From: an uncultured Mycobacterium sp.
GTDB lineage: Bacteria; Actinomycetota; Actinomycetes; Mycobacteriales; Mycobacteriaceae
Direction of reading: 5' to 3'
Assembly (NCBI GenBank): GCA_964590745.1
Contig: CAZPZQ010000001.1
Coordinates: 1-47,697, forward strand
DNA length: 47,697 nucleotides
The notes under the pieces are model-generated. The model searched no databases and had not been told where the DNA came from. It was given only the letters and a program-made list of their open reading frames with translations. Below, in pieces: positions 2,040 to 43,683 of this stretch. Position numbers and translations under genes: made by a program. The first letter of the stretch is position 1; every line of letters starts with the position of its first letter.

Positions 2040-2477
2040 TCAGCAGGTCACGTCGATGGTGAAGTCCGCGGTGGCCAACTCGCCGGGGTTGTCCGGGTCG
2101 GAACCCTGCGCGGTGCCGGTGATGTGGTAGGTGTCCGAGGCGAACGTCGCCTCAGCGTTGCCCGTCGCGGCGTTGGCAACGCCGGTGAAGCCGTCGAAAT
2201 TGTCGAAGCTGACCGACTGGGGCTTCGGCGTGTCGGGTTCAAGGTCGAGCATCGCGTGCACGTGGGCTGGTTCGGCGCCGATATTCACCGTCAACAACCA
2301 TTGAACCTGCGCGCAGGAGACATCGTGCGAGGTTCGGGCATTGCCGTTGATTGCGACCCGGGCCCTCTTCTGCACATTGCCCGACTGACCGCAACCCGAT
2401 GTGCCGGCCAGCACAGCACCGGCGACCAGTGCTGCGGCGACGCACCGGCGAGGCGGCGTCGAATTAGCTGAAATCAA
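2040..2477 (-). CDS. LpqH/19-kDa-family lipoprotein
   Basis: Hydrophobic signal plus lipobox-like GTSG-C; VSC, YHITGTAQG and FTIDVTC motifs of the family; start (TTG 2477) uncertain. Confidence 0.8.
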   Translation of the reverse strand: MISANSTPPRRCVAAALVAGAVLAGTSGCGQSGNVQKRARVAINGNARTSHDVSCAQVQWLLTVNIGAEPAHVHAMLDLEPDTPKPQSVSFDNFDGFTGVANAATGNAEATFASDTYHITGTAQGSDPDNPGELATADFTIDVTC

Positions 2478-3615
2478 TGATGCCCCTGATGATTTCACCG
2501 CTGTGCAAGTCCTGATAGGCGTCGTTGATGTCGTCGAGGCGATACCGCCTGGTGATCATTTCGTCGAGTTGCAGCTGTCCGCTCTGATACAGCAGTGCCA
2601 GCCTTGAAATGTCGGCCCTTGGGTTGCACGATCCGAAGACGGTGCCCACCAGGTTCTTGTTCATCAAGATGAAATCCTGCAGGTTGATCTTGATGGAATG
2701 GGTGGTTGGCGTGGTCATCCCAGTGAGCACGCAGGTTCCGCCCTTACGGGTCAGGGTCACGGCGGCGTGCACGTCGGCAGCGCCAATCAACGACGGTGAC
2801 ACCACCACGGCGTCGGCCATCACCCCGGAGGTGAGATCGCGGACCAGATCCACCGCGTCGGCAGCCGTTGCGACAGCGTGAGTAGCGCCAAACCGCAGTG
2901 CCGACTTCTGTTTGAACTCGACCGGGTCGACGGCGACGATCTGTGCGGCGCCATTGATCCGGGCGCCCTGGATGGCTCCGGTGCCGATACCGCCGGCGCC
3001 GATGACGACTGCCGTGTCGCCGCCGCGGATCCGGCCGCGGTGTGCCACCGAACCGTATCCGGTGGGCACCGCACACGACAGCAGTGCACTGGGGGCCAAC
3101 GGCAACCGCGGATCGATTTTGACCAGCGAGCTCGCTGCGACCACGGTGTGCTGTGCGAACGCACCGATCTTGGATAAGTGACCGAGCGGCTGTCCGTCTC
3201 TGGTGTGGTGACGAAACGTGCCGTCGGTGGGCATGCCCGGGGTCAGGGTTCCGATGCCGGCGTCGCAGAGGTACTCCATGCCCGTCGCGCACCAGCGGCA
3301 CCGCCCGCAGACCGCGACGAAGGACGCCACCACGTGGTCACCCGGCGCGAAATCAGTGACGCCGTCACCGATTTGCCGGACGATGCCGGAGCCCTCGTGA
3401 CCGCCGATGGTCGGGAACATGGTGGGCAGACCCAGCGACCGCAGCACCTCGTTGGGGGCCGCCATATCGCCGTTGCGGATGTGCTCGTCGGAATGGCACA
3501 GCCCGGCGGCGGCCATCTCGACCAGTACTTCGCCGGCGCGCGGCGGGTCCAGCTGGAATTCCTCTATCGACCACGGCTTGCCCACATCGTGCAGGACGGC
3601 CGCCCGGCTCTTCAC
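2464..3615 (-). CDS. Zn-dependent (NDMA-type, nicotinoprotein) alcohol dehydrogenase, mycofactocin-associated type
   Basis: MKSRAAVL start in GTGA overlap with the P450 stop; GLCHSDEH, GGHEGSG, CGRCRWC..C and GAGGIG motifs. Confidence 0.9.
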   Translation of the reverse strand: MKSRAAVLHDVGKPWSIEEFQLDPPRAGEVLVEMAAAGLCHSDEHIRNGDMAAPNEVLRSLGLPTMFPTIGGHEGSGIVRQIGDGVTDFAPGDHVVASFVAVCGRCRWCATGMEYLCDAGIGTLTPGMPTDGTFRHHTRDGQPLGHLSKIGAFAQHTVVAASSLVKIDPRLPLAPSALLSCAVPTGYGSVAHRGRIRGGDTAVVIGAGGIGTGAIQGARINGAAQIVAVDPVEFKQKSALRFGATHAVATAADAVDLVRDLTSGVMADAVVVSPSLIGAADVHAAVTLTRKGGTCVLTGMTTPTTHSIKINLQDFILMNKNLVGTVFGSCNPRADISRLALLYQSGQLQLDEMITRRYRLDDINDAYQDLHSGEIIRGIIDFS

Positions 3616-4838
3616 GACACCGGTGTGAACGTCACCGGCAATCGGTTGGGTGACCGGAAGGTCAGTCCGACGATGTCGGCGTCGCTGTCCGGGACCAGCG
3701 TCAGATCGGTGACCCGGTCCAACAGGCTCTCCAGCATGATCTGCGTTTCCAGCCTCGCCAGATGCATGCCCATACACATGTGTTCGCCGGCACCGAACGA
3801 CATGTGCGCCTTGTGCGGCCGAAGGATGTCGAACACGTCGGGATCGGTCCACCGGCTTTCGTCACGGTTGGCCGCTCCCATGCACAAGTCGACTTGCGCA
3901 CCCTTCGGGATTGTCTTCCCGCCTATCTCGACATCCTGCGTGGTGGTGCGCACCACCGTCGTCAGCGGTGTTTCGTATCGCAGACCTTCTTCAAACGCGA
4001 GGGGTATCAGCGATCGATCCTGGTAGAGCATGGCCAGCTGGTCTGGATGGGTGAGCAGGAGATGCAGCAGATTTCCCGACGAGCGGTAAGTCGTTTCCAG
4101 GCCGGCCAGCAGCAGCAGCCGCAAAAACGCGATGATCGCTTCGTCGGTCAGCTTCTCTCCGTCGATTTCAGCGCTGACCAGGTCGCCGATGATGTCGTTG
4201 GTCATCTTGCGGTGCCGTTGTTCGACCTGGTCGAGGAAGTAGTCGTGCAGTTCGACTGATGCTCGCAGCCCCGCCTCGATGTCGACCGGGATCGAGATCA
4301 GGTCGAACGACAGCCTCCGGAACATGTCCAGGTCTTCCATCGGCAGCCCGAGCAGGATGGCGGTGATCCGGGTCGGAAACTCCGACGTCACCGTCTTGAC
4401 CAGGTCAGCGGCGCCGTGGTCTTTGAACTCATCGACCAGCCCTTCACACACCGGTCTGATGACGGTCGGTTCCCAGTTCCGCAGCGCGGCGCCACGGAAG
4501 GCCTTCGCTACCAGGCTGCGGTGTTTGTGGTGTTCTCGGCCGCGCATCGCCAGGATGGTGTGGCCAATCACCAGGCCGATCGTCATGTCGTAGTTCTCTG
4601 TGGTGAACACCTCATCGTCGTTGCGGAACGCCCGGAACACATCCTCGTAGCGGAACAGGCTCCACTCGTCGTCCGGCAGAAGTTCCGGTGGTGTCTGCTC
4701 GTGCTTCGGCATCACACCGCCGTGCCAGACCGGCTCCGTGCGCCGCATGTGGTTGAAGAACGGGTACGGGCTGGTTTCACCGGTGTGGTCCAAGGTGATC
4801 GATCGGTCGTGCGGATCGGTGCTGATTGTCACCGGCAT
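3612..4838 (-). CDS. Cytochrome P450
   Basis: I-helix AGLETT, EGLR (ExxR), heme motif FGAGEHMCMG; ATG 4838 after a purine-rich RBS. Confidence 0.95.
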   Translation of the reverse strand: MPVTISTDPHDRSITLDHTGETSPYPFFNHMRRTEPVWHGGVMPKHEQTPPELLPDDEWSLFRYEDVFRAFRNDDEVFTTENYDMTIGLVIGHTILAMRGREHHKHRSLVAKAFRGAALRNWEPTVIRPVCEGLVDEFKDHGAADLVKTVTSEFPTRITAILLGLPMEDLDMFRRLSFDLISIPVDIEAGLRASVELHDYFLDQVEQRHRKMTNDIIGDLVSAEIDGEKLTDEAIIAFLRLLLLAGLETTYRSSGNLLHLLLTHPDQLAMLYQDRSLIPLAFEEGLRYETPLTTVVRTTTQDVEIGGKTIPKGAQVDLCMGAANRDESRWTDPDVFDILRPHKAHMSFGAGEHMCMGMHLARLETQIMLESLLDRVTDLTLVPDSDADIVGLTFRSPNRLPVTFTPVS

Positions 4839-4875
4839 GCCTCTCTCTGCAGCGGACTTGTCTGCGCGGAACCTC

Positions 4876-4903
4876 GCTATCATAATATAAATAGCAATAA
4901 AGC
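4876..4903. promoter_or_regulatory. Tandem 9-bp operator-like motif, copy 1
   Basis: g-CTATCATAA-TATAAATAG-CAATAAAG-c in the P450/Rieske ferredoxin divergent intergenic region. Confidence 0.7.
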
Positions 4904-4970: not shown

Positions 4971-5330
4971 ATGCCGATACGCCAGTTTGTCTGCGCACTC
5001 GACGAGTTGCCGCCGGGTTCGATGAAGCTGGTCGATGTCGGCAAGTTCGGCGTCGGTGTCTACAACGTGCGCGGCTCGTTGCATGCGATTGTCAACTACT
5101 GCTCTCATCAGGGCGCGCCGCTGTGTCTCGGCTCGGTCAACGGCACCACCGAGCCCGACCCGGAACAGCCGGATGGAGTACGCCTGGTGCGCGAAGGTCA
5201 GATCGTCCGATGCCCCTGGCACCAATGGGAGTTCGACATCACCACCGGGAAGAACGTCGCCGATCCGCAGCGCCGGGTGCGCACCTACGAAGTCGACGTC
5301 AGCGACGGAGAGGTCTACCTCACGGCATGA
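4971..5330 (+). CDS. Rieske [2Fe-2S] ferredoxin
   Basis: CSH...CPWH ligands, WEFDITTG; RBS GGAGG; ATGA coupling to next gene. Confidence 0.92.
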   Translation: MPIRQFVCALDELPPGSMKLVDVGKFGVGVYNVRGSLHAIVNYCSHQGAPLCLGSVNGTTEPDPEQPDGVRLVREGQIVRCPWHQWEFDITTGKNVADPQRRVRTYEVDVSDGEVYLTA

Positions 5331-6421
5331 GCAAACCAACTTCCGGCGGTCCAGTTATCGACGCCAACGTCCAACCGCATTTCCGCAATAACGCTGAAAT
5401 CCGGCACTACCTGCCGCCGGTGCACAAGCTCCGGGCGATACCGGACGTGGAGCAGCAGTGGTATCAGGCGCCGGGCGGTGACTACCGGCCGGATCTCTAT
5501 GGCGAGCACTACCCGGGCTCCGACCCGGAAACCGTCAGCCGGCACCTGTTCGGCGACTGGCACATCGACTACGCGATCCTCAACCCGTTGACCCGCGGTA
5601 ACATCGCCGACTATCTGCTCAACAGCCGGATTTGCGCCGCGGTCAACGACTGGCTGTTGGACCGGTGGCTGATACCGGATGCCACCAACCGGTTTCGTGG
5701 CACCATCCGGGTCAACCCCGAGGACCCCAAGGGTGCGGTCGCTGAAATCGAGCGGTTGGCTGGGCATCCGAAAATGGTCCAGGTCGGAGTGCCCATGCAG
5801 TCACGCGAACCGTACGGCAAGCCGATGTTCGAGCCGATCTGGGAGGCCGCGGAAGCCCACGGACTTCCGGTGGCGGTACACATCAACGGCGGCAATGGGA
5901 TTGACCACGCGCCCACCTTCGCCGGCCACGCTCACACCTACCCCGGATATGCGGCGTTCATGCCACTGAACTACTTCGTGCACTTGGCCACGCTGATCGT
6001 CGAGGGTGTTTTCGGGCGTCACCCCGGGCTGAAGGTCGTTTTCGCCGACGGTGGTTACGACATTCTCACGCCGCTGATGTGGCGGCTGGACACCTTCTGG
6101 CTATCGATGCGTGACCAGACTCCGTGGGTGGACCGGTATCCCAGTGAGTACCTGGCCGACCACGTCCGGTTCTGTTCGTCGTCGCTAGACGGGCCGACCG
6201 ACACCGGCCAGATTGCCCAGTGGATGGACTTCTCGAACAAGTCGGAACTGGTCATGTACGGTTCGAGCTATCCGCACTGGTCGACATCGCCACCGGGCGT
6301 AATGGCGGCGGGTCTGGACAGCCCGCAGCGGGATAAGTTCTTGTGGCGAAACGCCAGTAACTTGTATGGGCTCACCCAACCGACGGCAGCTCGCCCGATC
6401 GACGAAAGTAGCGTGTCATGA
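5327..6421 (+). CDS. Amidohydrolase_2-fold protein with degenerate metal site (AibH1-like partner subunit)
   Basis: IDANVQPH, VAVHING, FADGG, YGSSYPHW: family fold motifs with several ligands substituted. Confidence 0.85.
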   Translation: MSKPTSGGPVIDANVQPHFRNNAEIRHYLPPVHKLRAIPDVEQQWYQAPGGDYRPDLYGEHYPGSDPETVSRHLFGDWHIDYAILNPLTRGNIADYLLNSRICAAVNDWLLDRWLIPDATNRFRGTIRVNPEDPKGAVAEIERLAGHPKMVQVGVPMQSREPYGKPMFEPIWEAAEAHGLPVAVHINGGNGIDHAPTFAGHAHTYPGYAAFMPLNYFVHLATLIVEGVFGRHPGLKVVFADGGYDILTPLMWRLDTFWLSMRDQTPWVDRYPSEYLADHVRFCSSSLDGPTDTGQIAQWMDFSNKSELVMYGSSYPHWSTSPPGVMAAGLDSPQRDKFLWRNASNLYGLTQPTAARPIDESSVS

Positions 6422-7581
6422 CCGCTTCGGAACGGGCCGAGTCGCAGGTCCAAAGTGATGAGATCGCGGTGACCATCGTCGACACCGACGTGCACCCGAT
6501 GGTGGCGTCGCTGGATGTGTTGAAGTCTTACGCTCCGCCGGAATGGGTGGACAAGATCTTTCCGACCGGGCACGCGGTGACTCCGATACCACATTTCTAT
6601 GACACCCCGAATTCCTTTAAGACGTTTTCGCTTCGAACCGACGCCGTCCCGCCCGGCGGTGGATTCCCGGGAACCGACCCCGATTTCGCGGCCAAGCAAC
6701 TATTGCTTGACGCCGGAGTCAGCATCGCGCTGCTGGAACCGCTGTGCGACGCCCAGCTGCCGGAAGCCGAACACGTGCTGAAATCGACCTACAACGACTG
6801 GCTCGCGGACTTGTGGCTGGACAAGCACAACAGCCACGGTCGCTGGCGTGGGACCGTCAGTGTCAGTGCCCAGGCGCCTGAGCTGGCGGCGCGTGAAATC
6901 GAGCGCTGGGCGGGCCATCCGTACATGGCTGAGGTGCTGATGACACCGCAGACCCGTGGAATACCTTTCGGTAACCCACATTTCGATCCACTCTATGCCG
7001 CCGCGGCTCGCAACGGACTTCCGGTGGCCACGCATCTGATGGGCCAGACCCCGTTTGAGTTGGTCCCCATTTATCCGGTGGGGAATCCGGCGCACTGGCA
7101 TGATTTCTTCGCATCGTGGCCGCTACTGTTCGTATCGCACTTGATGAGCCTGGTATTCGACGGTGCATTCGACCGCCATCCAGACCTGCGGGTGGTGTTC
7201 GTCGAAGGCGGCTTTACCTGGGTGGCGCCGGTGATGTGGCGGATGGACCGAATCTGGGAGGCTCGCCGGGGCGATCTCCCACAGGTGCGACGGCGTCCGT
7301 CCGAATATGTGCGCGAGCACGTCCGGTTCACCACGCAGCCACTCGAGGAAATCAACGTCGCGGTGTATCGCGAGTACCTGGAGATGGCCGACCTGGGCAA
7401 CATCCTGATGTTCTCCACCGACTACCCGCACTGGAGCTACGACTCGCCCAGTTATGCGATCAACCGGTTCCCGCGTGACCAGCGGGAGCGGATCATGTAC
7501 GGCAACGCAACGGCCTTGTACCGGCTGCCGTCGAGGGTGAAGGCGCTGCCGGGGGAACGGTCAGCCGCCGATGTCGCTTGA
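6418..7581 (+). CDS. Amidohydrolase_2-fold protein, probable dinuclear oxygenase catalytic subunit (AibH2-like)
   Basis: VDTDVH, VATHL, FVEGG, FSTDYPHW ligands intact; ATGA-coupled to its paralog. Confidence 0.85.
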   Translation: MTASERAESQVQSDEIAVTIVDTDVHPMVASLDVLKSYAPPEWVDKIFPTGHAVTPIPHFYDTPNSFKTFSLRTDAVPPGGGFPGTDPDFAAKQLLLDAGVSIALLEPLCDAQLPEAEHVLKSTYNDWLADLWLDKHNSHGRWRGTVSVSAQAPELAAREIERWAGHPYMAEVLMTPQTRGIPFGNPHFDPLYAAAARNGLPVATHLMGQTPFELVPIYPVGNPAHWHDFFASWPLLFVSHLMSLVFDGAFDRHPDLRVVFVEGGFTWVAPVMWRMDRIWEARRGDLPQVRRRPSEYVREHVRFTTQPLEEINVAVYREYLEMADLGNILMFSTDYPHWSYDSPSYAINRFPRDQRERIMYGNATALYRLPSRVKALPGERSAADVA

Positions 7582-8008
7582 GCGTCGGGACGACCCGACG
7601 GCGGCACTGGTCGCTCTGGTGCGTGAGTACGACGAGAAATGGTCGACTCTCGATATTGCCGGGCTCGCCGACTTGTGGGAGTTGAAAAGTCCGCAGCCGG
7701 TGTATTTCGCCGATGAGTATGCGACGCCGTTGATCGGGTTCGATGAATTCGACCGGCACTGGGTCCGAGTTGGTGGCCGGCTCAAGAAGGCGTCGGTGTC
7801 GTCGGAGTTGCGGTACTGCGACATGCTTGCCGACGGCTTTGCTCGCTGCGTGGTACTGAGTAGGTGGCACCTCACCGGACATGAGTCCGACGTAGTGCAC
7901 ACCGGTGCCAGCTGGATCACCTGGCTGGTGGTAGTACGCGGCGACCGCTACCGCATCTGTCACCACATGGAAACACAGGTCTACTTGCCCGACGACGAAG
8001 CGCGGTAA
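7571..8008 (+). CDS. SnoaL/NTF2-like protein
   Basis: 145 aa; N-terminal helix ending WSTLDIAGLADLW, C-terminal beta strands ending YRICHHME. Confidence 0.7.
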   Translation: MSLERRDDPTAALVALVREYDEKWSTLDIAGLADLWELKSPQPVYFADEYATPLIGFDEFDRHWVRVGGRLKKASVSSELRYCDMLADGFARCVVLSRWHLTGHESDVVHTGASWITWLVVVRGDRYRICHHMETQVYLPDDEAR

Positions 8009-8027: not shown

Positions 8028-8723
8028 TCAGACCGGGTCCAGTCGGGCGATCAGCCAACTGCCGTCAACCTTCGACAACGACACCTGCACACTGCGTGCT
8101 GCCATCGCCGGCTCCGGCTGCTGTCTGCTGGTGGTGGTCTGGTCCACGAACACCAGCACCACCGCGGATTCGGGGTGCAGTTCTGCCACCGCGATGCCGA
8201 CCACTTCGGCGGTAGTGGTCAATCCCTTTTCTTTCGCCGCCGGAGCAACCACCTGTCGAGCGAAGTCCTCGAAATAAGACAGGAAGTCACCGGTCAGGTG
8301 TGACCTCGCGGTGGCCAGGTCGCTGTCGACCGTCTCCGGCGTGTAAGACAGCATCGCAACGGTGCCGTCGCGCGCCGCACTGGCCACCACGGCCGCCGCG
8401 CCGGCATTGGTCTGGTTGTCGGGCCGGTACCAGGAGACGTACAGCCAGGTGGTCAACGCGGCGGCGACCAGCACGAGAAGAACCAGCAGCGCCGGGGCAA
8501 GCTTCACCTCAGCGGTTTGCAGCCGGTGTCGGATGCCGGGCTTGTGCCGCGCGTCGTCGGCGGTGCCGATGCGCCGCTCCTCAGCATCGCTGCGCGCTGC
8601 ATCGTCGTCGGCGGTGCTGATGCGCCGCTCCTCAGCATCGCTGCGCGCTGCATCGTCGTCGGCGGTGCTGATGCGCCGCTCCTCAGCATCGCTGCGCGCT
8701 GCATCGTCGTCGGCGGTGGTCAT
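8028..8723 (-). CDS. Mce-associated membrane (Mam) protein with N-terminal 17-aa repeats
   Basis: Single TM helix; [29 protein letters not shown] and WLIARLDPV motifs. Confidence 0.88.
8552..8718 (-). repeat. MIRU-like 51-bp tandem repeat (~3.3 copies)
   Basis: Units start at 8568, 8619 and 8670 (+); minus strand reads ACCGCCGACGACGATGCAGCGCGCAGCGATGCTGAGGAGCGGCGCATCAGC, resembling the MIRU core GACGATGCAG...GCGATG..GAGGAGCGGCGC. Confidence 0.9.
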
Positions 8724-9559
8724 GGCACGTACACCAATTTCGACATCTTGAGCTGATCACCGTCTCTGCTGACCGTCACCCGCAGTCGCCAGGTCCGCGG
8801 CTCCGCTTTTGCCCCTGCAGAATTGGTGACACGGGACGTCGCCGCCACCAAGACCACAGCGGAATCCCTTTCCATCGATTCGATCGCGGCTAAATTCACC
8901 GTTCCCTCGCTGACCACATGCGCCTGTTTGGTCACCTCGGTGAAATCAGCTGCCTGCCGTTCGAAGTCATCCCTGAATTCGCCGGTGGAGTTGTCCAGCA
9001 CCCGCTGAATATCCTCCTCGACGTTCTGGAAGTTCAGTGACGTCATGTTGATAACGCCCTGCTTAGCCGCTGCGATAAACGCCGCTGCGGACTGCCGGCG
9101 CTGCACTGCGCCATGATGCTGTACCGCGATGAGAACGCTGGCGCCGAGCAACGCACAGACCAAAGCGACCGCGGCGCCGGAGATTACCGTGGCTGGCCGG
9201 GGTTTAGTCAACCGGCGTCGCGGCGATTCCGTCCCGGCTGGGCGCTCGGCGGCTTCGTCGGCGTCTGGCGAGTCGGCGCTGGCCGCACCGGTTACTTCCG
9301 CGTTGATGGCGGGCTCGTCGGCCTCTTCGGAATCCACGCTGGACTCAGCGCTGTCACGTTGGCGGGTGCGGGCCATGGCGGCCGAATCGGCCTGCTGTCG
9401 CAGCCGGATAGCCCGCGCCCGGGCCTGCGCTGCGACAGCCAGTGCTTCGGCCTCGGCGGCTTCGGCTGCAGCGACTTCGGCGTCCTCGACCAATGCTGGA
9501 TCAGCTATCGGCTGGGTTGCATCCTCGCGCGGCTGGTTGTCATCAGGCATCGCGGCCAC
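8720..9559 (-). CDS. Mce-associated membrane (Mam) protein
   Basis: Acidic N-terminus, TM helix, [37 protein letters not shown] and KMSKL motifs. Confidence 0.9.
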
Positions 9560-33570: not shown

Positions 33571-33963
33571 ATGAGCATGACCTATCAGCAGGAGCACCTG
33601 CTCAGCGGCGCGGTGGGCCGGGACGCCATCCTGAACCTCACGGCGCGGCACAATCGGTGCTATTCATCAGGTGACCGAGACGGTTGGATCGCGACGTTTA
33701 AGCACTCCGGCGCCCAATTCACCCGCGGCGGCGAGACCTTCACCGATTTACGGGACGCATTCGACGGCGGGGGACAGCGGCTGGTCACCGTCGACCACGA
33801 CATCTGGGTGGACGGCATCGACGCAACCCAGCACTGCGTCGCGTTGCTGTTTGTCGCCGGCCCCGATGCCGTCCGGATGCAAGCCACCGGCACCTATCGG
33901 GATCAGCTGGTCTACGAACGGGGCAACTGGTACTTCGCTTCCCGTGATTTGCAATGGGATTAG
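33571..33963 (+). CDS. SnoaL/NTF2-like protein
   Basis: RDAILNLTARH..GD..GW..TF...GTYRDQL...W.FASR pattern. Confidence 0.8.
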   Translation: MSMTYQQEHLLSGAVGRDAILNLTARHNRCYSSGDRDGWIATFKHSGAQFTRGGETFTDLRDAFDGGGQRLVTVDHDIWVDGIDATQHCVALLFVAGPDAVRMQATGTYRDQLVYERGNWYFASRDLQWD

Positions 33964-36619: not shown

Positions 36620-37339
36620 TTAGCGGCAAAGATCTGGCCGGCGGTCAGCCCACGGCCGGGCTTGTTCGAGTTGCGCGGCCAGCCGGATCAGCTGTCCCTC
36701 CGTGCCGAGCCGGCCGACGAACTGAACACCGATCGGCAGCCCGTCGGTACTCCGATACCGGGGAACGCTCATGGCGGGCCGACCGGTGAGGTTCGCCAGA
36801 TAGGTATGTGGCACCCAGCTGAGGTGCTCGGTGATGATGCGGTCGAACAGCGGGCCGATAACCGGTGTCAGCCGCAGCACCAACCCGAAGGTTCCGGCGC
36901 GAAACGCGGCCCTGGCGCCCAGACGCAGCGCCGCCGGAAGATTGACTGTCCCGACCCGCGGCGGTGGGGCAGCGGTGGTCGGGGTGAGCAGCAGGTCGAA
37001 GCGCCGATGAAAGTCCGCGAGCCGCAGACGTGCTCATGGCGTTGCTCGATGGCGCGGATCAACTGCACAGCTTTGGTGGTGCGGCCCATGGCCGCCTCCA
37101 CCCGGGTGATGAGCTCGAACGCCGAGTCGTCCGCACCGCCGGCGGCCTTGGCCTCGTCGACGGTCAAAGCCAGATCGGCGAACATCATGGTGAGCAGGTT
37201 CTTCATCAAGGCTGCGTCATCACCCGGGGCACGATGCCGGCAGCCACCGCGGCGGGTCCAGCAGTTCTGCCGGTTTGACCGCACCAGACCGGATCAGCTG
37301 AGCCAGTCCCACCGCGTCATAGGTCGCGTATTCGTGCAC
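36620..37339 (-). pseudogene. Amidase-signature family pseudogene
   Basis: N-terminus MHEYATYDAVGLAQLIRSGAVKPAELL, a middle fragment DDAALMKNLL...RHEH in another frame, and C-terminus FDLLLTPT...ANLTGRPAMSVP...GLPIGVQFVG...LAAQLE in a third; catalytic core absent. Confidence 0.85.
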
Positions 37340-37370
37340 GTCGCGGCTTTATTCCGGAAGGCAACGGCCG

Positions 37371-38846
37371 TTAGGGCGTGGGCAGCGGCGGCATCGCATC
37401 CTTGCTGACCACCGCCTGCAGTTCGACATACTCGGCCAGGCCCTCGGCGCCGAACTCGCGTCCGATACCAGACTGCTTGAACCCGCCGAACGGGGTGCTG
37501 ATATCGAGGTTGTACATGTTGACGCCGTAGGTGCCGGCGCGCACCGCGGCGGCAACCTCCATGCCGTGCGCGGCGTCTTCGGTCCACACCGAGCCGGCCA
37601 GGCCATAGTCACTGTCGTTGGCGATCCGGACCGCATCGGTTTCATCGGTGTATTTCAGTACCGTCAGCACCGGGCCGAAGATCTCCTCGCGCGCGATCTG
37701 CATCTGGTTGCTGGCGTCGGCGAACAGCGTGGGCCGCACATACCAGCCGCGGTCCGCCGGAGCGTCGTCGCCGCCGACGACAATCCTGGCGCCCTCGTCA
37801 ATACCGGATCGGATGTAACCCTGAACCCGGTGCTGTTGGCGCTGTGCGACCAGCGGGCCGATGTCGGTGGCTTCATCGGTGGGGTCGCCGATCTGCAAGC
37901 CGGCCATCATGTCGGCGAGTGCATCGACCACCTCGTCGTAGCGTCGCTCACTGACCAGAATCCTGGTCTGTGCCACGCAGGCCTGCCCGTTGTTCATCAG
38001 TCCAGCCGTTTTCAAGGCGCCGACGGTGTGCTCGACGTCGGCATCGTCGAGGATGATCGCAGCTGACTTGCCGCCCAACTCGAGGCTTACTCGTTTGAGT
38101 TGTTCGCCGCAGATGGCCGCGATGCGCCGACCGGCGGCCGATGACCCGGTGAACGCAATCTTGTCCACTCCCGGGTGACGGACCAAGTGTTCGCCGACCT
38201 CCCGGCCACCCGGCAGCACCGACACCACCCCTTCCGGCAGGTCGATCTCCGCCAGCATTTCGGCTAGCCACAGGGCGTCCAACGGTGTTTCGGGCGCGGG
38301 CTTGACCACGACGGTGCAGCCGGCGATCAGCGCCGGGATCAGTTTAGGCATGATGACGAATTGCGGTACATTCCACGGCACGATCGCGCCGACCACCCCG
38401 ACCGGCGCCCGGCGCACCTGGACCTCCCCGTAGAGCCCCTGACGCCGTTCGATCCACCGGAACTCCCGCGCGGTCGCCAAAGCCAGATGCATCATGGCGG
38501 CTGCGCCGGCCGCTTGACCCTGCCTGGAAAACCGTCGCGGTGAGCCCATTTCGGCGGTGATCAGGTCAGCCATCTCCTCGAGATGGGCGGTGTACACGGC
38601 GGCCAGCTTCTCCACCTTTTCCATCCGGTCGGCCGGGCTGAGCTGCGGCCACGGGCCATGGTCGAATGCTGTCCGAGCCGCCGCCACCGCCCGGTCGACG
38701 TCCTCGGCGGTGGCCTCGGGGACCTCGCCGATCTGCTGTTCGGTGTGTGGTGAGATCACGGCAAGTCGACGTCCGGTCGCCGGCCGCTGCCAGCGTCCAC
38801 CGATGAAGAGTTGATCGTAGGTCCGGTGATCGAGGTGTTCGGCCAT
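37371..38846 (-). CDS. Aldehyde dehydrogenase
   Basis: IVPWNVP, KPAPETP, FTGS, LELGGKS, NGQAC, EEIFGPV, FGGFKQSG. Confidence 0.96.
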   Translation of the reverse strand: MAEHLDHRTYDQLFIGGRWQRPATGRRLAVISPHTEQQIGEVPEATAEDVDRAVAAARTAFDHGPWPQLSPADRMEKVEKLAAVYTAHLEEMADLITAEMGSPRRFSRQGQAAGAAAMMHLALATAREFRWIERRQGLYGEVQVRRAPVGVVGAIVPWNVPQFVIMPKLIPALIAGCTVVVKPAPETPLDALWLAEMLAEIDLPEGVVSVLPGGREVGEHLVRHPGVDKIAFTGSSAAGRRIAAICGEQLKRVSLELGGKSAAIILDDADVEHTVGALKTAGLMNNGQACVAQTRILVSERRYDEVVDALADMMAGLQIGDPTDEATDIGPLVAQRQQHRVQGYIRSGIDEGARIVVGGDDAPADRGWYVRPTLFADASNQMQIAREEIFGPVLTVLKYTDETDAVRIANDSDYGLAGSVWTEDAAHGMEVAAAVRAGTYGVNMYNLDISTPFGGFKQSGIGREFGAEGLAEYVELQAVVSKDAMPPLPTP

Positions 38847-38880
38847 GCGGCACCGCCTTGCGCAGGGTGCAGATAACTTC

Positions 38881-38910
38881 GCTATTGACGCTAACATAGC
38901 AAAGAATGAC
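38881..38910. promoter_or_regulatory. Tandem 9-bp operator-like motif, copy 6
   Basis: GCTATTGACG-CTAACATAG-CAAAGAATG; contains GCTAT-N10-ATAGC and shares TTGACGCTAAC with copy 7. Confidence 0.65.
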
Positions 38911-38961
38911 AGCTCTGGGCGTGCGCCGCCGGTGATCGCCGGTGATGAGGAGAGGCCGACG

Positions 38962-39744
38962 TTGGGCGACGAACTTCTGGTCACCGCGGACGGCGCAGTG
39001 CGCACCGTGACGCTGAATCGCCCCCAGGCCAAGAACGTCATTGACGCACCATTGCACGCCCAGCTGCTCGATGTCTGGCACAGCCTGGACCGCGATGTCG
39101 ACGCGCGCTGCGTGATTCTCACCGGCGCCGGGGAGACATTCAGCGGGGGCGGAGATTTCGGGTTTCTCAAAGCCCAGCATCAGTCGATTCAGCTGCGGTA
39201 TGCGGTTTCCCAACAGGCCGGCGCCATCCTGGGCGCGATGATCAACTTCCGGCTGCCGGTGGTGGCTGCGATCAATGGGCCGGCGGTTGGGCTGGGCGCG
39301 TCGCTGGCGCTGTGTTGCGACCTGGTGTTGATGTCTGACCGCAGCTATCTGTGCGATCCGCACGTCTCGATCGGGCTGACCGCTGCCGACGGCGGTGCGC
39401 TGCTGTGGCCGTACATGATGAGCATGATCCGCGCCAAGGAATACATCTACACCGGCACGCGCATCCCCGCGGCAGACGCGGTCGACCTCGGCCTGGCAAA
39501 CCGGGTGGTGCCGGCGGACACACTGATGGACGAGGCCCGGGCGCTGGCGGCCAAGCTCGCGGCCCAGCCGGCCCGGGCGCTGCAGACCACTAAACGGGCG
39601 TTCTCCAAGCACATCGCCCAGGCGGCGATCGCCATCGTCGACTACGGCTTGGCCGCCGAAGCCCTGGAACTGGGCGCCGACGAACACATCGACAAAGTCC
39701 GCGAATTCCTTGGCCCAGACAAATACGACGCGATCGGCCGGTGA
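38962..39744 (+). CDS. Crotonase/enoyl-CoA hydratase superfamily protein (His/Asp type)
   Basis: TLNRP..KN, FSGGGD, PVVAAINGPAVGLG, DPHVSIGLTAADGG; RBS GAGGAG before TTG. Confidence 0.9.
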   Translation: MGDELLVTADGAVRTVTLNRPQAKNVIDAPLHAQLLDVWHSLDRDVDARCVILTGAGETFSGGGDFGFLKAQHQSIQLRYAVSQQAGAILGAMINFRLPVVAAINGPAVGLGASLALCCDLVLMSDRSYLCDPHVSIGLTAADGGALLWPYMMSMIRAKEYIYTGTRIPAADAVDLGLANRVVPADTLMDEARALAAKLAAQPARALQTTKRAFSKHIAQAAIAIVDYGLAAEALELGADEHIDKVREFLGPDKYDAIGR

Positions 39745-39745
39745 G

Positions 39746-41101
39746 GTGCCAGCGGATTGGCGTCGCTACCCGTTCCGGCTGGTGCCCGACCGGCTGGAGT
39801 TCCCGGCCGCCGAGGGCGCCCATCCCGACCAGGAGTCCGATACCTGGTTTCTGGCCGGCCAACTCACCACCGCGGCCGGCGATCGGTCGTTTGCCTTTTT
39901 GACCATTGTCAACAAGAACCGGCCCGGCGGGTCGATGGTCGCCGATTTTTATACGCTGGCGCTGTTCGAGCTGGACACCGGCGACTACGGCAGCTACACC
40001 GACTACGACATGCCGCCAGCCAATCGCCACCGTGCTGAGCCGAAACTGTCCGCCGCCGCAGGGCATCTCGACATCCGCTACCGCAGCAGTGCCGGCATAG
40101 CGGTGTGGACCGCCTGCCGCGACGGCGACGGACGTCTGCTGCCGTACACCTACCGCACCGATCTGGTCGGCTGCGATTCCGCGGACCGGGCAATGCGGCT
40201 GGAACTCGATGTGGCGCCGACGCGCGCGCCGGTACCGCTGGGCGCGTCGACCCACGACGGCCGGATTGCCTGTTTCGGACAAGACGACACTTACTCGTAT
40301 TTTCAGAGCGGGATGGCGATGACCGGGACGCTGCGCTGGGGCGACATCCATGAGCAGGTAGCCGGCGCCGCCGGGCACGTCGACCGGCAATGGTTTCCCA
40401 AATACGCCGGCGGGGGCGGAACCGGGGGTGATCCGCGGGCTCGCTCACACGAGTGGTGCACCATCAACCTGAACAACGGCGTCGACTTAAGCGTCTGGCG
40501 CCAGTTCGACCGCACCAGCGGCAATGCACTGCGCCCATTCTCCGGAGTGACCGTCAGTTATCCGGGTCCGACCGCACCGCCCGAGTTCACCGACGACGTG
40601 ACGGTTCAGGTGCACAGTTATGTCCGATGGCCGGACTCGGTGCGTCCGCTGGTCCCGCCGCTCGCCCCGGTCCGCTACCTGCCGGATCGACACCGGATTG
40701 CCTCGGCCGCATTAGAACTGGACGTTACCGGCGAGCCGATGGTTGCCGCGCCGGCGCATGCCCTGCCGATCGAGTACATGGAGGGGCCGTACCGCTACCG
40801 CGGGACCCTGCGCGGCGAGCCGGTGCAGGGTTTCGGGTTCTACGAACGCTCGCTGGCGCTCTACCGAGACTGGGAGTTGATCGACGTATTGGACGTCGCA
40901 GTAGCCAGCCTCCGGCCCGGCGTCGAGCGGTTGGCGGCATCGGTGCACCGGATTCGGTCATTGTTGACGGCCGGCGATCGGCGCGCGGCGCTCAATGCGC
41001 TGCGGACCGAGGTGCGGCCAACCGTCGACACCGGGTCGGTAGCCACCGTGACCGAGGTGCTTGACGACCTTATCAATGCCGTACTGCGCGATCTGGGGTG
41101 A
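39746..41101 (+). CDS. Lipocalin-like double beta-barrel protein (AttH/CrtC-like)
   Basis: FPAAEGAHPD..DTWF..G, TYSY, G.L.W...V.G..GHVDRQW, HEW..INL, Y.EGP....G...G.GFYE pattern. Confidence 0.72.
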   Translation: MPADWRRYPFRLVPDRLEFPAAEGAHPDQESDTWFLAGQLTTAAGDRSFAFLTIVNKNRPGGSMVADFYTLALFELDTGDYGSYTDYDMPPANRHRAEPKLSAAAGHLDIRYRSSAGIAVWTACRDGDGRLLPYTYRTDLVGCDSADRAMRLELDVAPTRAPVPLGASTHDGRIACFGQDDTYSYFQSGMAMTGTLRWGDIHEQVAGAAGHVDRQWFPKYAGGGGTGGDPRARSHEWCTINLNNGVDLSVWRQFDRTSGNALRPFSGVTVSYPGPTAPPEFTDDVTVQVHSYVRWPDSVRPLVPPLAPVRYLPDRHRIASAALELDVTGEPMVAAPAHALPIEYMEGPYRYRGTLRGEPVQGFGFYERSLALYRDWELIDVLDVAVASLRPGVERLAASVHRIRSLLTAGDRRAALNALRTEVRPTVDTGSVATVTEVLDDLINAVLRDLG

Positions 41102-42236
41102 GCCGTCGCAGTGCCTCGGTCCAGGCGATGTGGCGATGCTGCAGGCCGGGTTCGTTGCGACCGAACAACAGTTGAGCGCGGGCTCCGGATTCCAGATTGG
41201 CCTGCAGCGTCTCGACGAGGCGGTAATCTTCGTCGCGGACCGTCGCGTGCGCATAGTCAAATACGGCCTGGGCGCCGGCCGCCACCGATTCGTCGGAGAC
41301 ATCGAGCGGCGTGGAATTCTGGTGCACGGTGATCGAGCGATTCGGTCGGTCCGCCGGGTAGATTCGGAACAGCTCACCGTTGGCGATGGTCACCGACAGC
41401 ACGATGTTGGGGAACAGCGCGTAGATCACCACCAGGTACTTGAACGGGTCCCATTCGTCTTCCGGAATATCGGCTAGCTCCAGAATCCCGTTGAGCGGGA
41501 AGATCAACCGGTGATGTGGCCCGAATGAGTCGAAGACGGTGCAGTTGCTGCGGGCGATCGTCGCAAAGGTCTGCCGGTGCACAGTGGCGAAGTGGTAGTT
41601 CTCCGCGAATGTATCGACTGCCAGCTTCCAGTTGATCGCGGTGTCGAGCACCTTCTCGCCCAGCGGAGACCAGTGGCCGATACCCCACGAGTCGAGCTCG
41701 CCGGCCAGGGGGCCCAAGTGTGCGGCGATGTCCAGCTTGCCAGCGGGATCGAGTGACACCCAGAGGAATCCGGCGAACTCGGCGGCCGGCAACTCGGTCA
41801 GACCGACCGATTTGACGTGCACACCTGGAAACCCCTCGCGACCGGGGACGGCCACCAAGCGCCCGGTGTTGTCGTACGTCCAGGCGTGATATGGACAGGT
41901 GAATCGTTTTGCGGTGCCACACCCGGTCACCACTTGGGCTTGCCGGTGCAGGCAGACGTTGTCGAACGCCTTGACCATCCCGCCGGCGGTCCGGGTCAGC
42001 AGTATCGATCGCCCCATCACGGTCTTGGTGACATAGCTGTTCGGCTGTGGCAGTTCGGATACGTAACCCACCAGCTGCGGGCTGGCTGCCAGCATGGTGC
42101 GGTCGCGCTCGTGTCGCGCGGTTGAGGTATAGGCGTCGGTGTCGACGGTGTACTCACTCGGGGCCAGGTCGGTGGTTTTATCCCGCGCCAGCTTCACCGC
42201 ACGTCGGGTCAGGTCGACGAGTTGGTCGCGATCCAT
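41073..42236 (-). CDS. Rieske oxygenase alpha subunit (SRPBCC domain)
   Basis: NVCLHRQ..CPYHAW, NWKL..D.FAENYHFATVH, RDED. Confidence 0.92.
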   Translation of the reverse strand: MDRDQLVDLTRRAVKLARDKTTDLAPSEYTVDTDAYTSTARHERDRTMLAASPQLVGYVSELPQPNSYVTKTVMGRSILLTRTAGGMVKAFDNVCLHRQAQVVTGCGTAKRFTCPYHAWTYDNTGRLVAVPGREGFPGVHVKSVGLTELPAAEFAGFLWVSLDPAGKLDIAAHLGPLAGELDSWGIGHWSPLGEKVLDTAINWKLAVDTFAENYHFATVHRQTFATIARSNCTVFDSFGPHHRLIFPLNGILELADIPEDEWDPFKYLVVIYALFPNIVLSVTIANGELFRIYPADRPNRSITVHQNSTPLDVSDESVAAGAQAVFDYAHATVRDEDYRLVETLQANLESGARAQLLFGRNEPGLQHRHIAWTEALRRLTPDRAVRH

Positions 42237-42277
42237 GTCGTCAATTACAGCAGACTCGGACCGGCGAGATCCGCCAG

Positions 42278-42310
42278 TTGACGCTAACTTTATAAACTTT
42301 ATAATCACAA
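42278..42310 (+). promoter_or_regulatory. Near-consensus SigA promoter with 9-bp operator-like motif, copy 7
   Basis: TTGACG(42278)-N16-TATAAT(42300); g-CTAACTTTA-TAAACTTTA-TAATC fills the spacer. Confidence 0.72.
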
Positions 42311-42393
42311 GTATTCAACGGGTGGCGGCGGATCCGCGCTGGCTGCGGCGGCGCGAATCCGCATCCGCAGGCAACGACCGGAAGGTGCAGCCG

Positions 42394-43683
42394 ATGGACA
42401 TCAACGACCTGGTGATGGTCAGCGTCGACGACCACGTGGTGGAACCGCCGCATCTTTTCGACGGGCGACTGCCGACGAAATACGTCGAGTTCGCCCCGCA
42501 ATTCATCACCAACCCGGACGGCACCAATGTCTGGCAGTACAACGGCGAGACGGTCGGCAACGTCGCGCTCAACGCGGTTGCCGGCAAGCCCAAAGAGGAG
42601 TACGGGATCGAACCCACCTCTTTTACCGAACTGCGGCCCGGTACCTATGACCACAACGAACGGGTCAAGGACATGAGCGCCAACGGGGTGCTCGGCTCGC
42701 TGTGCTTTCCGTCCTTCCCGCAGTTTTGCGGCCAACTTTTTGCCCGCACCGAAGACAAAGACGTCGCGCTGGCGATGGTGCAGGCCTACAACGACTGGCA
42801 TATCGACGAGTGGTGCGGCAGCCACCCGGGCCGGTTCATCCCGTGTGCACTGCCGGCGATCTGGGATCCGGAAGTGATGGCCACCGAAGTCCGGCGGGTC
42901 GCCAAGAAGGGTTGTCACGCACTGACATTCAGTGAAAACCCATCGAAATTGGGCTGGCCGTCCATCCACTCCGACCACTGGGACCCGGTGTGGCAGGCGT
43001 GCAGCGAGGAATCGGTGGTGGTGTGCATGCACATCGGATCGTCGTCGCAGCTGACCATCACCTCACCCGACGCGCCGATGGACGTGATGATCACTCTGCA
43101 GCCGATGAACATCGTGCAGGCGGCCGCCGACCTGGTGTGGTCGAAGATGCTGCGCAAATTCCCCGATCTTAAAGTCGCGCTGTCTGAGGGCGGCATCGGC
43201 TGGATTCCGTATTTTCTGGAACGGATCGACTACAACTACGATCGCCACCACGCCTGGACCGGCCAAGACTTCGGCGACAAGCTGCCCAGCGAGGTGTTCA
43301 ACGAGCATGTCATCACCTGTTTCATCGACGACAGGTTCGGCATGGCCAGCCGCGCGGCGTTGGACCTGGACATGGTGACCTGGGAATGCGACTACCCGCA
43401 TTCGGACTCCAACTGGCCGCAATCACCGGAGGTCTTCGCCCAATCAATGGACGGGGTCAGTGACACCGACATCGACCGGATCACCCATTTGAACGCCATG
43501 CGACACTTTCACTACGACCCGTTCTCGGCGCTGGGTGGAAAACAGAATTGCACGGTCGGGGCGCTGCGTAAGTCGGTTGAAGGCCATGATGTCTCGCTCA
43601 AGTCGCAGCGCCGCGAAGATGGCCAGCGGACCCGGATGACCGCCGCGGACCTGGCTAAGCTGGCGGCCGCCAGCGCAAAGTAG
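42394..43683 (+). CDS. Amidohydrolase_2-fold protein
   Basis: SVDDHVVEP, CMHIGSS, LSEGG, WECDYPHSDS. Confidence 0.9.
   Translation: MDINDLVMVSVDDHVVEPPHLFDGRLPTKYVEFAPQFITNPDGTNVWQYNGETVGNVALNAVAGKPKEEYGIEPTSFTELRPGTYDHNERVKDMSANGVLGSLCFPSFPQFCGQLFARTEDKDVALAMVQAYNDWHIDEWCGSHPGRFIPCALPAIWDPEVMATEVRRVAKKGCHALTFSENPSKLGWPSIHSDHWDPVWQACSEESVVVCMHIGSSSQLTITSPDAPMDVMITLQPMNIVQAAADLVWSKMLRKFPDLKVALSEGGIGWIPYFLERIDYNYDRHHAWTGQDFGDKLPSEVFNEHVITCFIDDRFGMASRAALDLDMVTWECDYPHSDSNWPQSPEVFAQSMDGVSDTDIDRITHLNAMRHFHYDPFSALGGKQNCTVGALRKSVEGHDVSLKSQRREDGQRTRMTAADLAKLAAASAK

Follow-up and report, generated by a model that had tools for sequence, protein, structure and literature searches.

A co-inherited, oxygenase-rich and CoA-dependent gene cluster of Mycobacterium with its own direct-repeat operator, and a possible role in the catabolism of a steroid- or triterpenoid-type lipid

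The stretch of DNA analysed here (the window, 47,697 nucleotides, contig CAZPZQ010000001.1 or C1 of assembly GCA_964590745.1 of an uncultured Mycobacterium sp.) carries, between positions 2040 and 43683, a cluster of oxygenase and coenzyme A (CoA)-dependent genes that is conserved in about half of the sampled Mycobacterium genomes and is not a chance pile-up. Its gene content, synteny, co-inheritance, operator and a deletion within it are observed directly, and the ortholog sets and the operator support the original prediction of an undescribed, co-inherited and co-regulated oxygenase-rich system. For this regulon, which is likely to be read by its own GntR-type regulator, we infer, with a probability of roughly 0.5, the oxidation and CoA activation of a steroid- or triterpenoid-type lipid other than cholesterol. 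The defined operator and the co-inherited cluster are new here; the M. marinum counterpart was previously known only as a region that is repeatedly lost in M. ulcerans.

Genes were called by codon-position GC, and the 47 open reading frames (ORFs) were scanned with Pfam and NCBIfam, which confirmed the inventory first read from the sequence: two cytochrome P450s (P450a and P450b), two Rieske oxygenase alpha subunits (one of the KshA_C family, one a ring-hydroxylating oxygenase, RHO), six acyl-CoA dehydrogenases (ACADs) in three alpha/beta pairs, two CoA ligases, two family III CoA transferases (CoAT1 and the tandem fusion CoAT2), a MaoC pair, an alcohol dehydrogenase (ADH), an aldehyde dehydrogenase (ALDH), a GMC oxidoreductase, two short-chain dehydrogenases/reductases (SDRs) and an LLM-class oxidoreductase. 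An enoyl-CoA hydratase (ECH), a GntR-type regulator and a TetR-thioesterase fusion are also found. None of the scanned ORFs belongs to the kstD, hsa, ipd, thiolase or reductase families, as had been noted for kstD, hsaABCD, ipdAB and thiolases, and there is no polyketide synthase (PKS), nonribosomal peptide synthetase (NRPS) or acyl carrier protein (ACP) among them.

The operator is a 9-bp AT-rich direct repeat, CTAA[A/C]ATAG-TAAA[A/G]ATAG, which marks six divergent promoters:

4877..4894: site 1, between P450a and the ferredoxin gene, 29.5 bits
13394..13411: site 2, between CoAT1 and the mycofactocin-coupled SDR, 29.8 bits, kept in relatives
24529..24546: site 3, between the ACAD operon and the LLM gene, 31.5 bits
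27052..27069: site 4, between gntR and CoAT2, 17.3 bits, 60 bases upstream of gntR
30792..30809: site 5, between P450b and the KshA_C-family Rieske gene, 37.9 bits, consensus
38891..38908: site 6, between ALDH and the ECH and CrtC-like genes, 26.1 bits

The repeat was found by aligning five divergent promoters, and the scoring matrix was trained on relatives only; five of the six promoter classes entered the training via orthologs, and the class at 13394 was left out. When the whole 3.97-Mb genome is ranked, the six sites of the window come first (37.9 to 17.3 bits, in the order 30792, 24529, 13394, 4877, 38891, 27052), which bears out the shared promoter motif of the original prediction. The best score outside the window, 17.1 bits at position 8524 of contig C56, lies just below that of the sixth site, and no further regulon member scores above this value elsewhere in this 80% complete genome. 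The six promoters under this one operator type are spread over 34 kb. Among 120 Mycobacterium genomes taken in one draw, a pattern search finds the repeat in 66, namely in 65 holders of the KshA_C-family Rieske gene and in G129, and in none of the 52 genomes that lack the GntR gene, and the reversed-pattern control gives one match each in four genomes. Two GntR holders (G022 and G120) are missed by the pattern search, and the matrix finds sites of 28-30 bits there. The best NCBIfam model for the GntR protein is NanR, which scores far under its cut-off; NanR binds direct repeats. The cluster's own GntR protein is the likely reader of the direct repeat.

Two modules inside the interval have operators of their own:

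15614..15632: second operator type, a palindrome upstream of the 4DZI-like gene, kept in 5/5 orthologous promoters
16715-16730: site related to the palindrome, in the promoter of the TetR fusion, found in 4/5 relatives
42284..42304: a different 9-bp direct repeat between the RHO and DitZ-like genes, 10.5 bits on the main matrix

For the last of these, 12 of 51 RHO promoters reach 15 bits. Because of these separate operators, the interval is described as one main regulon with accessory modules, such that the proposal of a single system from 2040 to 43683 holds for the co-regulated core and not for the 4DZI-like/TetR and RHO/DitZ-like modules.

The direct repeat of the main regulon is also seen in paralogous clusters (L167-L172, in G004:C10, G022:C6 and G120:C21), whose GntR proteins are 61-70% identical to that of the window; two of them carry an mce operon and a DitZ-like gene that is 82-83% identical to the one in the window, and thiolase-like and ChsH2-OB genes also occur. 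It is possible that the paralogous clusters and the window cluster form a family of related regulons. In the genome of the window itself, the mce operon of contig C14 (L203) shares 58-66% identity with the mce operons in the paralogous clusters and is accompanied by two Mam pairs, a TetR gene and an SDR gene, and contig C56 (L204), which holds the best motif site outside the window, has paralogs of the ADH, P450 (42%) and DitZ-like (42%) genes.

The per-gene locus counts refer to the best 80 loci, 61 of them with full flanks, and a wider ortholog check covers 198 relative loci; as related genomes are not independent, the co-inheritance counts describe the distribution and do not test it. The KshA_C-family Rieske gene, used as marker, has a single match (75-86% identity) in 65 of the 120 genomes, and the GntR gene occurs in 68, including all 65. 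AROa, a subunit of a putative dinuclear oxygenase discussed below, forms a single ortholog set in 47 genomes, 47/47 within the Rieske set, and the alpha-type ACAD of pair 2 (ACAD2a) is found in 50, of which 48 are within the Rieske set and 50/50 within the GntR set. The original prediction was to be given up if the genes proved not to be co-inherited; the ortholog sets are nested. Of the 61 full-flank loci, all have the MaoC pair and the SnoaL_4 gene, 60 have CoAT2 and ligase 2, 59 have GntR and the classical SDR, and 58 have ALDH, followed by P450b (52), the beta-type ACAD of pair 3 (51), the alpha-type ACADs of pairs 3 and 2, LLM and the CrtC-like gene (50 each), RHO (43), ECH (7), the DitZ-like gene (2) and the GMC gene (0).

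Gene order is preserved across the 80 loci and in eight 100-kb regions, where it is found in a minimal form lacking ACADs (G024, G076 and G116) and in an expanded, window-like form (G065, G110, G062, G060 and G128). AROa and the marker Rieske gene share a contig in 31 of 47 genomes; their distance is 6-10 kb in 11 of these and 22-52 kb in 20. In the minimal copies the left and right ends of the window come together within 6-10 kb. These copies keep a ligase and the MaoC pair but no ACADs, which suggests that parts of the cluster may act on several substrates. The marker occurs in 1/383 genomes of other genera of the class and in 0/393 of the phylum (at E 1e-70), and Rieske homologs of 60-67% identity exist, some of them labelled Acidimicrobiales. 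Named holders of the marker genes include M. intracellulare, M. marinum, M. colombiense and M. xenopi, next to many soil species.

Complete copies of the cluster contain a block that is deleted from the window. This block was found via extra motif sites in relatives, behind the mycofactocin-coupled SDR, and it comprises genes for E1 alpha and E1 beta subunits of the thiamine pyrophosphate (TPP)-dependent type, an ECH, a FadD4-like ligase, a second Rieske protein, a KstD-family flavoprotein, another ECH and sometimes a 115-residue ORF. It sits between the SDR and the 4DZI-like gene in G045, G136, G087 and G110; in the window, similarity to the relatives ends at about 14300 and resumes at about 14400:

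14300..14400: deletion junction, where relatives hold about 9-11 kb

An assembly error is rejected, since the junction lies within single contigs in 4/4 sequencing runs from two studies (runs X1 and X2 may be the window's own source). No ortholog of the block genes was found elsewhere in this 80% complete genome. In 11 genomes the block is found at another locus, and the operator is kept in 9/9 loci that reach the promoter (two stop short of it). The KstD-like gene occurs in 49 and the E1 alpha gene in 46 of the 120 genomes, in each case only within the 65 Rieske holders and in 0/55 others. The absence of kstD had been taken as a property of the system, and this view does not stand: the KstD-family gene is present in 49 of the 65 cluster genomes and has been deleted here. 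In consequence the window is a reduced copy, which may run only part of the route.

The KstD-family protein of the relatives (P0647) passes the cut-off of the NCBIfam 3-ketosteroid dehydrogenase model PRK12844 (839 versus 789) and shares 38% identity with the product of this genome's kstD; three Tyr motifs align between the two, at what we take to be the catalytic positions. By this score it is placed in the 3-ketosteroid delta-1 dehydrogenase family, with a putative activity of that kind. The presence of such a gene in the regulon shifts the likely substrate toward a 3-oxo ring compound; as the family includes cyclohexanone-carboxylate dehydrogenases, the gene points to a cyclic ketone, not to a steroid as such.

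The genes of the main regulon and of its accessory modules are:

2464..3615, minus strand: Zn alcohol dehydrogenase of the NDMA-dependent type TIGR03989 (483 bits, cut-off 440), counterpart of M. marinum adhB_1 by gene order
3612..4838, minus strand: P450a, CYP187A-like, 408 residues
4971..5330, plus strand: small Rieske ferredoxin (PF00355), AibG-like partner of the AROa/AROb pair, orthologs 72-79% identical
5327..6421, plus strand: AROb, degenerate amidohydrolase-fold partner subunit (no D-x-H; S-Y-P-H)
6418..7581, plus strand: AROa, likely catalytic dinuclear oxygenase subunit (D-V-H ... D-Y-P-H-W-S)
7571..8008, plus strand: small protein, SnoaL/NTF2-like by appearance only (no Pfam match; ortholog in 10/198 loci)
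8028..8723, minus strand: Mam1, Mce-associated membrane protein-like, 48% identical to genes beside the C14 mce operon
8720..9550, minus strand: Mam2, Mce-associated membrane protein-like, 34-39% identical to the C14 paralogs
9652..10785, plus strand: ACAD pair 1, beta-type
10782..12020, plus strand: ACAD pair 1, alpha-type, H-E-R motif kept
12105..13334, minus strand: CoAT1, family III CoA transferase (PF02515)
13439..14302, plus strand: mycofactocin-coupled SDR (TIGR03971, 334 bits, cut-off 300)
14390..15583, minus strand: amidohydrolase-fold protein with full dinuclear oxygenase motifs, apparently of the diiron type (closest solved structure 4DZI, E 3e-88)
15670..16680, minus strand: TetR-thioesterase fusion, likely regulator of its own two-gene module
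18797..20257, minus strand: CoA ligase 1 (best model BaiB, a bile acid-CoA ligase)
20254..21183, minus strand: ACAD pair 2, beta-type
21180..22328, minus strand: ACAD pair 2, alpha-type (ACAD2a, at the fadE17_2 position of M. marinum)
22333..23439, minus strand: ACAD pair 3, alpha-type
23436..24521, minus strand: ACAD pair 3, beta-type
24583..25500, plus strand: LLM-class oxidoreductase, likely F420-dependent, below model cut-offs
25415..26149, minus strand: classical SDR, core
26171..26992, minus strand: GntR/FadR-type regulator (GntR and FCD domains), likely binder of the direct repeat
27091..29487, plus strand: CoAT2, tandem two-domain family III CoA transferase, core
29494..30732, minus strand: P450b, no family assigned, in the CYP125/124/126/268 neighbourhood
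30861..31976, plus strand: KshA_C-family Rieske oxygenase distinct from KshA, used as the cluster marker
31976..33553, plus strand: CoA ligase 2, core
33571..33963, plus strand: SnoaL_4/NTF2 protein, core
33980..34498, plus strand: MaoC pair, N-type subunit, without a DUF35 domain
34495..34926, plus strand: MaoC pair, catalytic-type subunit
37371..38846, minus strand: ALDH, core
38845..39744 (ORF limits), plus strand: ECH, real start downstream of operator site 6, in a minority of relatives (9/80 loci)
39743..41101, plus strand: CrtC/AttH-fold protein
41073..42239, minus strand: RHO, ring-hydroxylating-type Rieske alpha subunit, with no beta subunit or reductase nearby
42394..43683, plus strand: DitZ-like diiron-type oxygenase (D-D-H, E-x-D-Y-P-H-S-D; 8UYR, E 2e-105), accessory, in 2/80 loci

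All three ACAD pairs consist of adjacent genes of which the alpha-type has, and the beta-type lacks, the catalytic Glu and FAD motifs, at positions that are presumably the functional ones. The closest solved relatives are heteromeric as well (6WY9 and 4X28, ACAD2a being nearest to Tcur3483/4X28), and the pairs are predicted to form heteromeric alpha2-beta2 enzymes. The assignment of two proteins as Mam proteins stands in so far as the pair is 34-49% identical to genes adjoining the mce operon on C14; neither protein has a Pfam match above cut-off. The N-terminus of Mam1 (8028-8723) has a near three-fold repeat of about 16 residues, which presumably resembles the DUF222-linked repeats of mycobacteria.

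Up to three dinuclear oxygenases had been proposed. Four amidohydrolase_2 genes are found, together with the small Rieske ferredoxin gene at 4971-5330; two of the four proteins have both motifs of the amidohydrolase-related dinuclear oxygenases (AROs), one retains the metal-ligand motifs with a Ser at the last motif position, and one is degenerate. In the accessible part of PMC13154177, the ARO motifs are given as an N-terminal D-x-H and a C-terminal D-x-P-H-x-D/E. The proteins encoded at 14390-15583 (DNH and DWPHPE) and at 42394-43683 (DDH and DYPHSD, with the gamma-3 Glu present as in DitZ) have both, and look like the diiron type by these criteria. AROa has the hydrophobic gamma-1 and aromatic gamma-4 residues that mark the Mn/Fe type in the same source, and the ferredoxin gene adjoins; by two of the three criteria given there, it is likely to be the catalytic subunit of a Mn/Fe-type enzyme. 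Its D-V-H, His and Glu motifs are invariant, and its C-terminal DYPHWS is found in 24/24 sequences, within an invariant D-Y-P-H-W-S-Y-D ending. AROa would work like an ARO, with a putative O2-dependent hydroxylation, and is not a strict member of the group; proteins that end like AROa would slip through the motif filter as worded in the accessible part of that paper.

AROb lacks both motifs, and its orthologs have D-x-N/S/C-V-Q and S/A/Q-Y-P-H instead. This arrangement is like that of AibG-AibH1H2 in the available text of PMC10811679, where two PF04909 genes, one degenerate and the other having D-V-H and D-Y-P-H-W, likewise come after a small Rieske ferredoxin gene; unlike in that system, the last motif residue of AROa is a Ser, the closest solved relative is the orphan 8SM7, and the genes are embedded in a lipid/CoA regulon. 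A model of the AROa-AROb complex scores 0.88, versus 0.00 for the best control, with runs agreeing in at least 96% of contacts and a partner pLDDT of at least 83; the mark used for this score is reached by 51/78 solved and 2/108 mismatched pairs. As the like complex AibH1H2 is already solved, the score is to be read as likeness and not as binding.

The cluster works like steroid catabolism but belongs to none of the KstR, KstR2, Cas and dit systems. Features shared with KstR/KstR2-controlled cholesterol catabolism are C-H oxidation, acid formation, CoA activation, ACADs of the alpha2-beta2 type, a MaoC pair, Mce-type uptake and, in the complete copies, a KstD-family gene. The differences are nevertheless extensive: the cluster has GntR and a direct repeat in place of KstR boxes, its MaoC pair is without the DUF35 domain of ChsH1-ChsH2, and hsaABCD, ipdAB, thiolase/Ltp2 and DUF35 genes, by which membership in these regulons would be seen, are absent among the 47 ORFs. 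In addition, it has the ARO heterodimer with its ferredoxin, a CYP187, a CrtC-fold protein and a TPP E1 pair, which the cholesterol system does not have. Searches with what we take to be the KstR and KstR2 box consensus give no match on C1, as originally noted, versus 46 and 5 matches elsewhere in the genome. The genome's own kstD is on contig C442 (940 versus a cut-off of 788), with KstR-type boxes upstream, and its kshA is on C599. A system distinct from the cholesterol pathway, as had been proposed, agrees with these locations.

The marker Rieske protein was considered as a KshA and rejected: it scores 90 bits with the KshA_C model, compared with 298 for the genome's kshA product, its identity to KshA is 26-28%, and it lies in a separate clade in a quick tree of 57 rows, none dropped. 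Its only NCBIfam match is the 4-beta-methylsterol monooxygenase model, and with an SDR in the core this resembles C-4 sterol demethylation by SdmA-SdmB; unlike in that system, the score is 82 bits against a cut-off of 600 and the core SDR is of the classical short-chain type. The Atlas entry for a Rieske homolog bears automatic names only. P450b has as closest solved relative CYP125MRCA (E 2e-102), and the reconstructed CYP125 ancestor oxidises sterol side chains, according to the accessible part of PMC12100521. P450b is not a CYP125 or CYP142, as its I-helix motif is of the AGSDTT type in 76/76 sequences versus GNETT in the CYP125 rows of the available part of PMC6237146; CYP269A1 of M. marinum is rejected by its I-helix GIDST, and no row of the table of 47 M. 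marinum M P450s, as available from that source, has the motif of P450b.

A place among the Cas bile-acid genes is excluded by the wide margins by which the CasG, CasI and BaiB models are missed. A place in a dit diterpenoid cluster, which we take to have RHO alpha and beta subunits, an extradiol dioxygenase and a conserved DitZ, is likewise rejected, as the beta subunit and the dioxygenase are missing from the window and the DitZ-like gene is not conserved among the loci. The 42394-43683 protein resembles DitZ in its motifs, its gamma-3 Glu and its match to 8UYR; unlike in the DitZ systems, the gene is accessory, and the window has neither an RHO beta subunit nor a ring-cleavage dioxygenase. 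For the CrtC-like protein nothing significant is found by a PDB sequence search, and its model (pLDDT 76) matches the folds of AttH, kievitone hydratase and 25-phosphosteroid lyase (E 8e-18 to 2e-10). No functional description of the cluster was found in the open literature, most subscription journals being outside the coverage.

The following route is proposed. The lipid would enter via an Mce importer aided by the Mam pair, as suggested by the mce operons of the paralogous clusters with the same motif. P450b, the CYP187, the ferredoxin-AROa/AROb oxygenase and the KshA_C-family Rieske protein would then hydroxylate unactivated C-H bonds, probably of methyl groups, and the alcohols would be converted into acids by the ADH, the SDRs and the ALDH, with mycofactocin as electron sink. 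The ligases and CoA transferases would make the thioesters, and desaturation and hydration would be due to the alpha2-beta2 ACADs, the MaoC pair, the ECH and the CrtC-fold protein. Where the copy is complete, a 3-oxo ring may be desaturated by the KstD-family enzyme and a C-C bond may be broken by the TPP E1 pair, either as a decarboxylation or as a ketol cleavage. Genes elsewhere in the genome would supply the reductases and the last thiolytic or aldolytic step, and the KstR/KstR2 pathway probably takes up the product. An isoprenoid with a cyclic ketone is hinted at by the KstD-family enzyme, by the orphan CrtC-fold protein at 39743 and by the nearness of P450b to sterol and branched-lipid omega-hydroxylases. 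The minimal copies would fit an acid that is already unsaturated next to the carboxyl group, as from an oxidised prenyl end. A more specific version is tentative and, in our estimate, rather unlikely: an upstream route that removes the extra methyls and prenyl-type side chains from 4,4-dimethyl sterols or triterpenoids (lanosterol, cycloartenol, plant or fungal triterpenes), in which the Mn/Fe dinuclear oxygenase and the new Rieske clade would oxidise the methyls and the TPP enzyme would remove carbon, after which the core would pass to the cholesterol pathway.

Several findings weigh against the steroid- or triterpenoid-type reading. No enzyme of the cluster has a close characterised relative, all matches being distant. 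The marker Rieske protein has its 26-28% identity with six of seven KshA rows, the seventh being a partial alignment; P450b is 76-80% identical to its orthologs and at most 41% identical to all other P450s in five genomes; ligase 1 reaches 332 of 650 bits with BaiB and 175 of 750 with CasG, and ligase 2 172 of 750 with CasG and 155 of 900 with CasI. AROa misses the published C-terminal ARO motif by one residue, the Ser at its last position, in 24/24 sequences. The window has no thiolase, aldolase, ring-cleavage dioxygenase or reductase, and three minimal copies are without ACADs in their 60-kb loci. At the threshold used, 16 of the 65 cluster genomes have no KstD-like gene, and the cyclohexanone-carboxylate dehydrogenases are among the lower-scoring rows of the KstD family. 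The link between GntR and the operator rests on co-occurrence among kin, which is non-independent.

It is possible, if doubtful, that the same regulon serves another hydrophobic ring or branched acid, for example a diterpenoid resin acid, an alicyclic (naphthenic-type) acid or a prenylated aromatic. In agreement with this, a diterpenoid hydroxylase is the best solved match of the 42394-43683 protein, a prenyl hydratase is among the matches of the CrtC-fold protein, 4-oxocyclohexanecarboxylate is a substrate of KstD-family relatives, RHO is present in 43/61 loci, and near-identical DNA occurs in soil metagenomes; however, the DitZ-like gene is rare and lies behind a different repeat, no extradiol dioxygenase or RHO beta subunit is seen in the window, and the Chc models score 270-312 against cut-offs of 900-1000, whereas the 3-ketosteroid model is passed. 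A role of the enzymes in tailoring or detoxifying a lipid of the cell's own or of foreign origin for export, and not in its use as a carbon source, appears improbable. The position next to fas, the MmpS/MmpL genes beside compact copies and the lack of a window thiolase to complete beta-oxidation would suit such a role, but the 47 scanned ORFs include no PKS, NRPS or ACP gene, the CoA transferases, ALDH, mycofactocin-linked dehydrogenases, KstD-family gene and E1 pair look catabolic, a separate TetR accompanies one MmpS/MmpL neighbour set, and in L162 no main-motif site scored past the catabolic genes.

As a further alternative, the tRNA gene may adjoin a plasticity zone in which unrelated catabolic modules collect without forming a single pathway. 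This describes the margins well, with their three operator types and strain-specific insertions, and the spacing of lprD and fas varies among genomes; as an account of the whole it is very improbable, as one operator covers six promoters over 34 kb and stays with the KstD module at its other positions, the holders of five marker genes all fall within the Rieske/GntR set, and the window ends are joined in the minimal copies (11/31 same-contig pairs). There is hardly any probability left for the genes being orthologs of a characterised pathway (KstR/KstR2 cholesterol, Cas bile-acid or dit), which was the other ground on which the original prediction was to be given up. Family-level likeness to KshA, CYP125, ChsE, ChsH, KstD and DitZ would be expected in that case; against it stand the genome's separate kstD, kshA and KstR-type boxes, the separate Rieske clade, the ligase scores and the open literature covered, in which no characterised orthologous pathway was found. 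For KstR and Cas this alternative is largely refuted.

A counterpart of the left half of the window is found in M. marinum. MMAR_3978-3997, in the RD12 list, follow its gene order, with an F420 oxidoreductase, four ACADs, a ligase, a regulator, a hydrolase, two ACADs, two membrane-type genes, cyp187A4 and adhB_1 (PMC2600814, Table S1); this is a match by order and motifs, not by sequence alignment. In the accessible part of that paper, the RD12 region is described as deleted independently in M. ulcerans haplotypes, with annotation only otherwise. The I- and K-helix motifs of P450a (GLETT and EGLR) and its 408 residues match the CYP187A4/A5 rows in the available part of the PMC6237146 supplement, where these genes lie among lipid-metabolism genes, and the gene order matches cyp187A4-adhB_1. 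By motifs, length and position beside adhB_1, P450a is predicted to be CYP187A-like.

Orphan CoA-dependent catabolic clusters are common as a kind; here a large orphan regulon is defined in about half of the sampled Mycobacterium genomes, and its operator sequence makes the substrate findable. The identity of the inducer would assign functions to the CYP187, an unnamed P450 family, a KshA-family clade, an ARO heterodimer, a KstD paralog and a CrtC-fold enzyme. The cluster is relevant to the cycling of carbon from plant and fungal lipids in soil, to steroid and terpenoid biocatalysis and to the repeated loss of the region in M. ulcerans; if the 4,4-dimethyl sterol/triterpenoid version were true, a second sterol-like catabolism, run by GntR and shed by host-adapted lineages, would exist in half of the genus.

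The genome of the window measures 3.97 Mb, with a GC content of 66.7%, and homologs of the window genes are labelled Mycobacterium or Mycolicibacterium. A recent horizontal island is not supported, the GC content within the window being 62-70%. The cluster lies between a tRNA-Leu gene and an Rv2525c-like gene followed by fas. The same lprD-fas site is occupied in G110 and G065 (92 and 107 kb apart); in the complete, cluster-less G050, lprD and fas are 3.1 kb apart (C1 1278614-1281735), which is a nearly empty site, and the spacings in four genomes are 3 kb, 70 kb, 92 kb and 107 kb. DNA near-identical to the window is held by soil metagenomes of one study and, in part, of a second; no RNA dataset is among the listed sequencing runs with such DNA. 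The flanks and the remaining features are:

1640..1724, plus strand: tRNA-Leu, left flank, preceded by rdgB, DUF3817 and an lprD-like gene
2040..2498, minus strand: LpqH-family (19 kDa) lipoprotein (PF05481), accessory, ortholog in 0/198 relative loci
16751..18205, minus strand: DUF222 (HNH-type repeat element) insertion, in 1/198 loci, with six paralog matches in the genome
34887..36587, plus strand: GMC oxidoreductase, accessory, in 0/198 loci
36620..37340, minus strand: broken amidase remnant beside the GMC gene, with stops and a large internal gap
45116..47697, plus strand: right flank, Rv2525c-like gene and 5' part of fatty acid synthase I

The GMC, LpqH-like, DUF222 and amidase-remnant genes fall inside the interval first proposed; they are insertions or accessory genes.

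Past the ADH gene, many copies continue into a larger lipid-catabolic region (L178:897-2390; M. marinum MMAR_3998-4015), with SDR, P450, carboxyl transferase, CYP187A5 and further ACAD, ligase and hydrolase genes. Broken or truncated P450b, ligase, RHO, ADH and CoA transferase genes occur in several copies (L024-L025 in G062, L181 in G065 and L183 in G115), a sign of decay of the cluster in some lineages. In L134 (NZ_AP022607.1, 189586-192756), whose record is labelled as an 864-kb plasmid of M. branderi, only the Rieske, ligase and SnoaL genes are present, the Rieske protein being 83% identical, and this copy sits in another context, near thiolase, OB-fold and ACAD genes.

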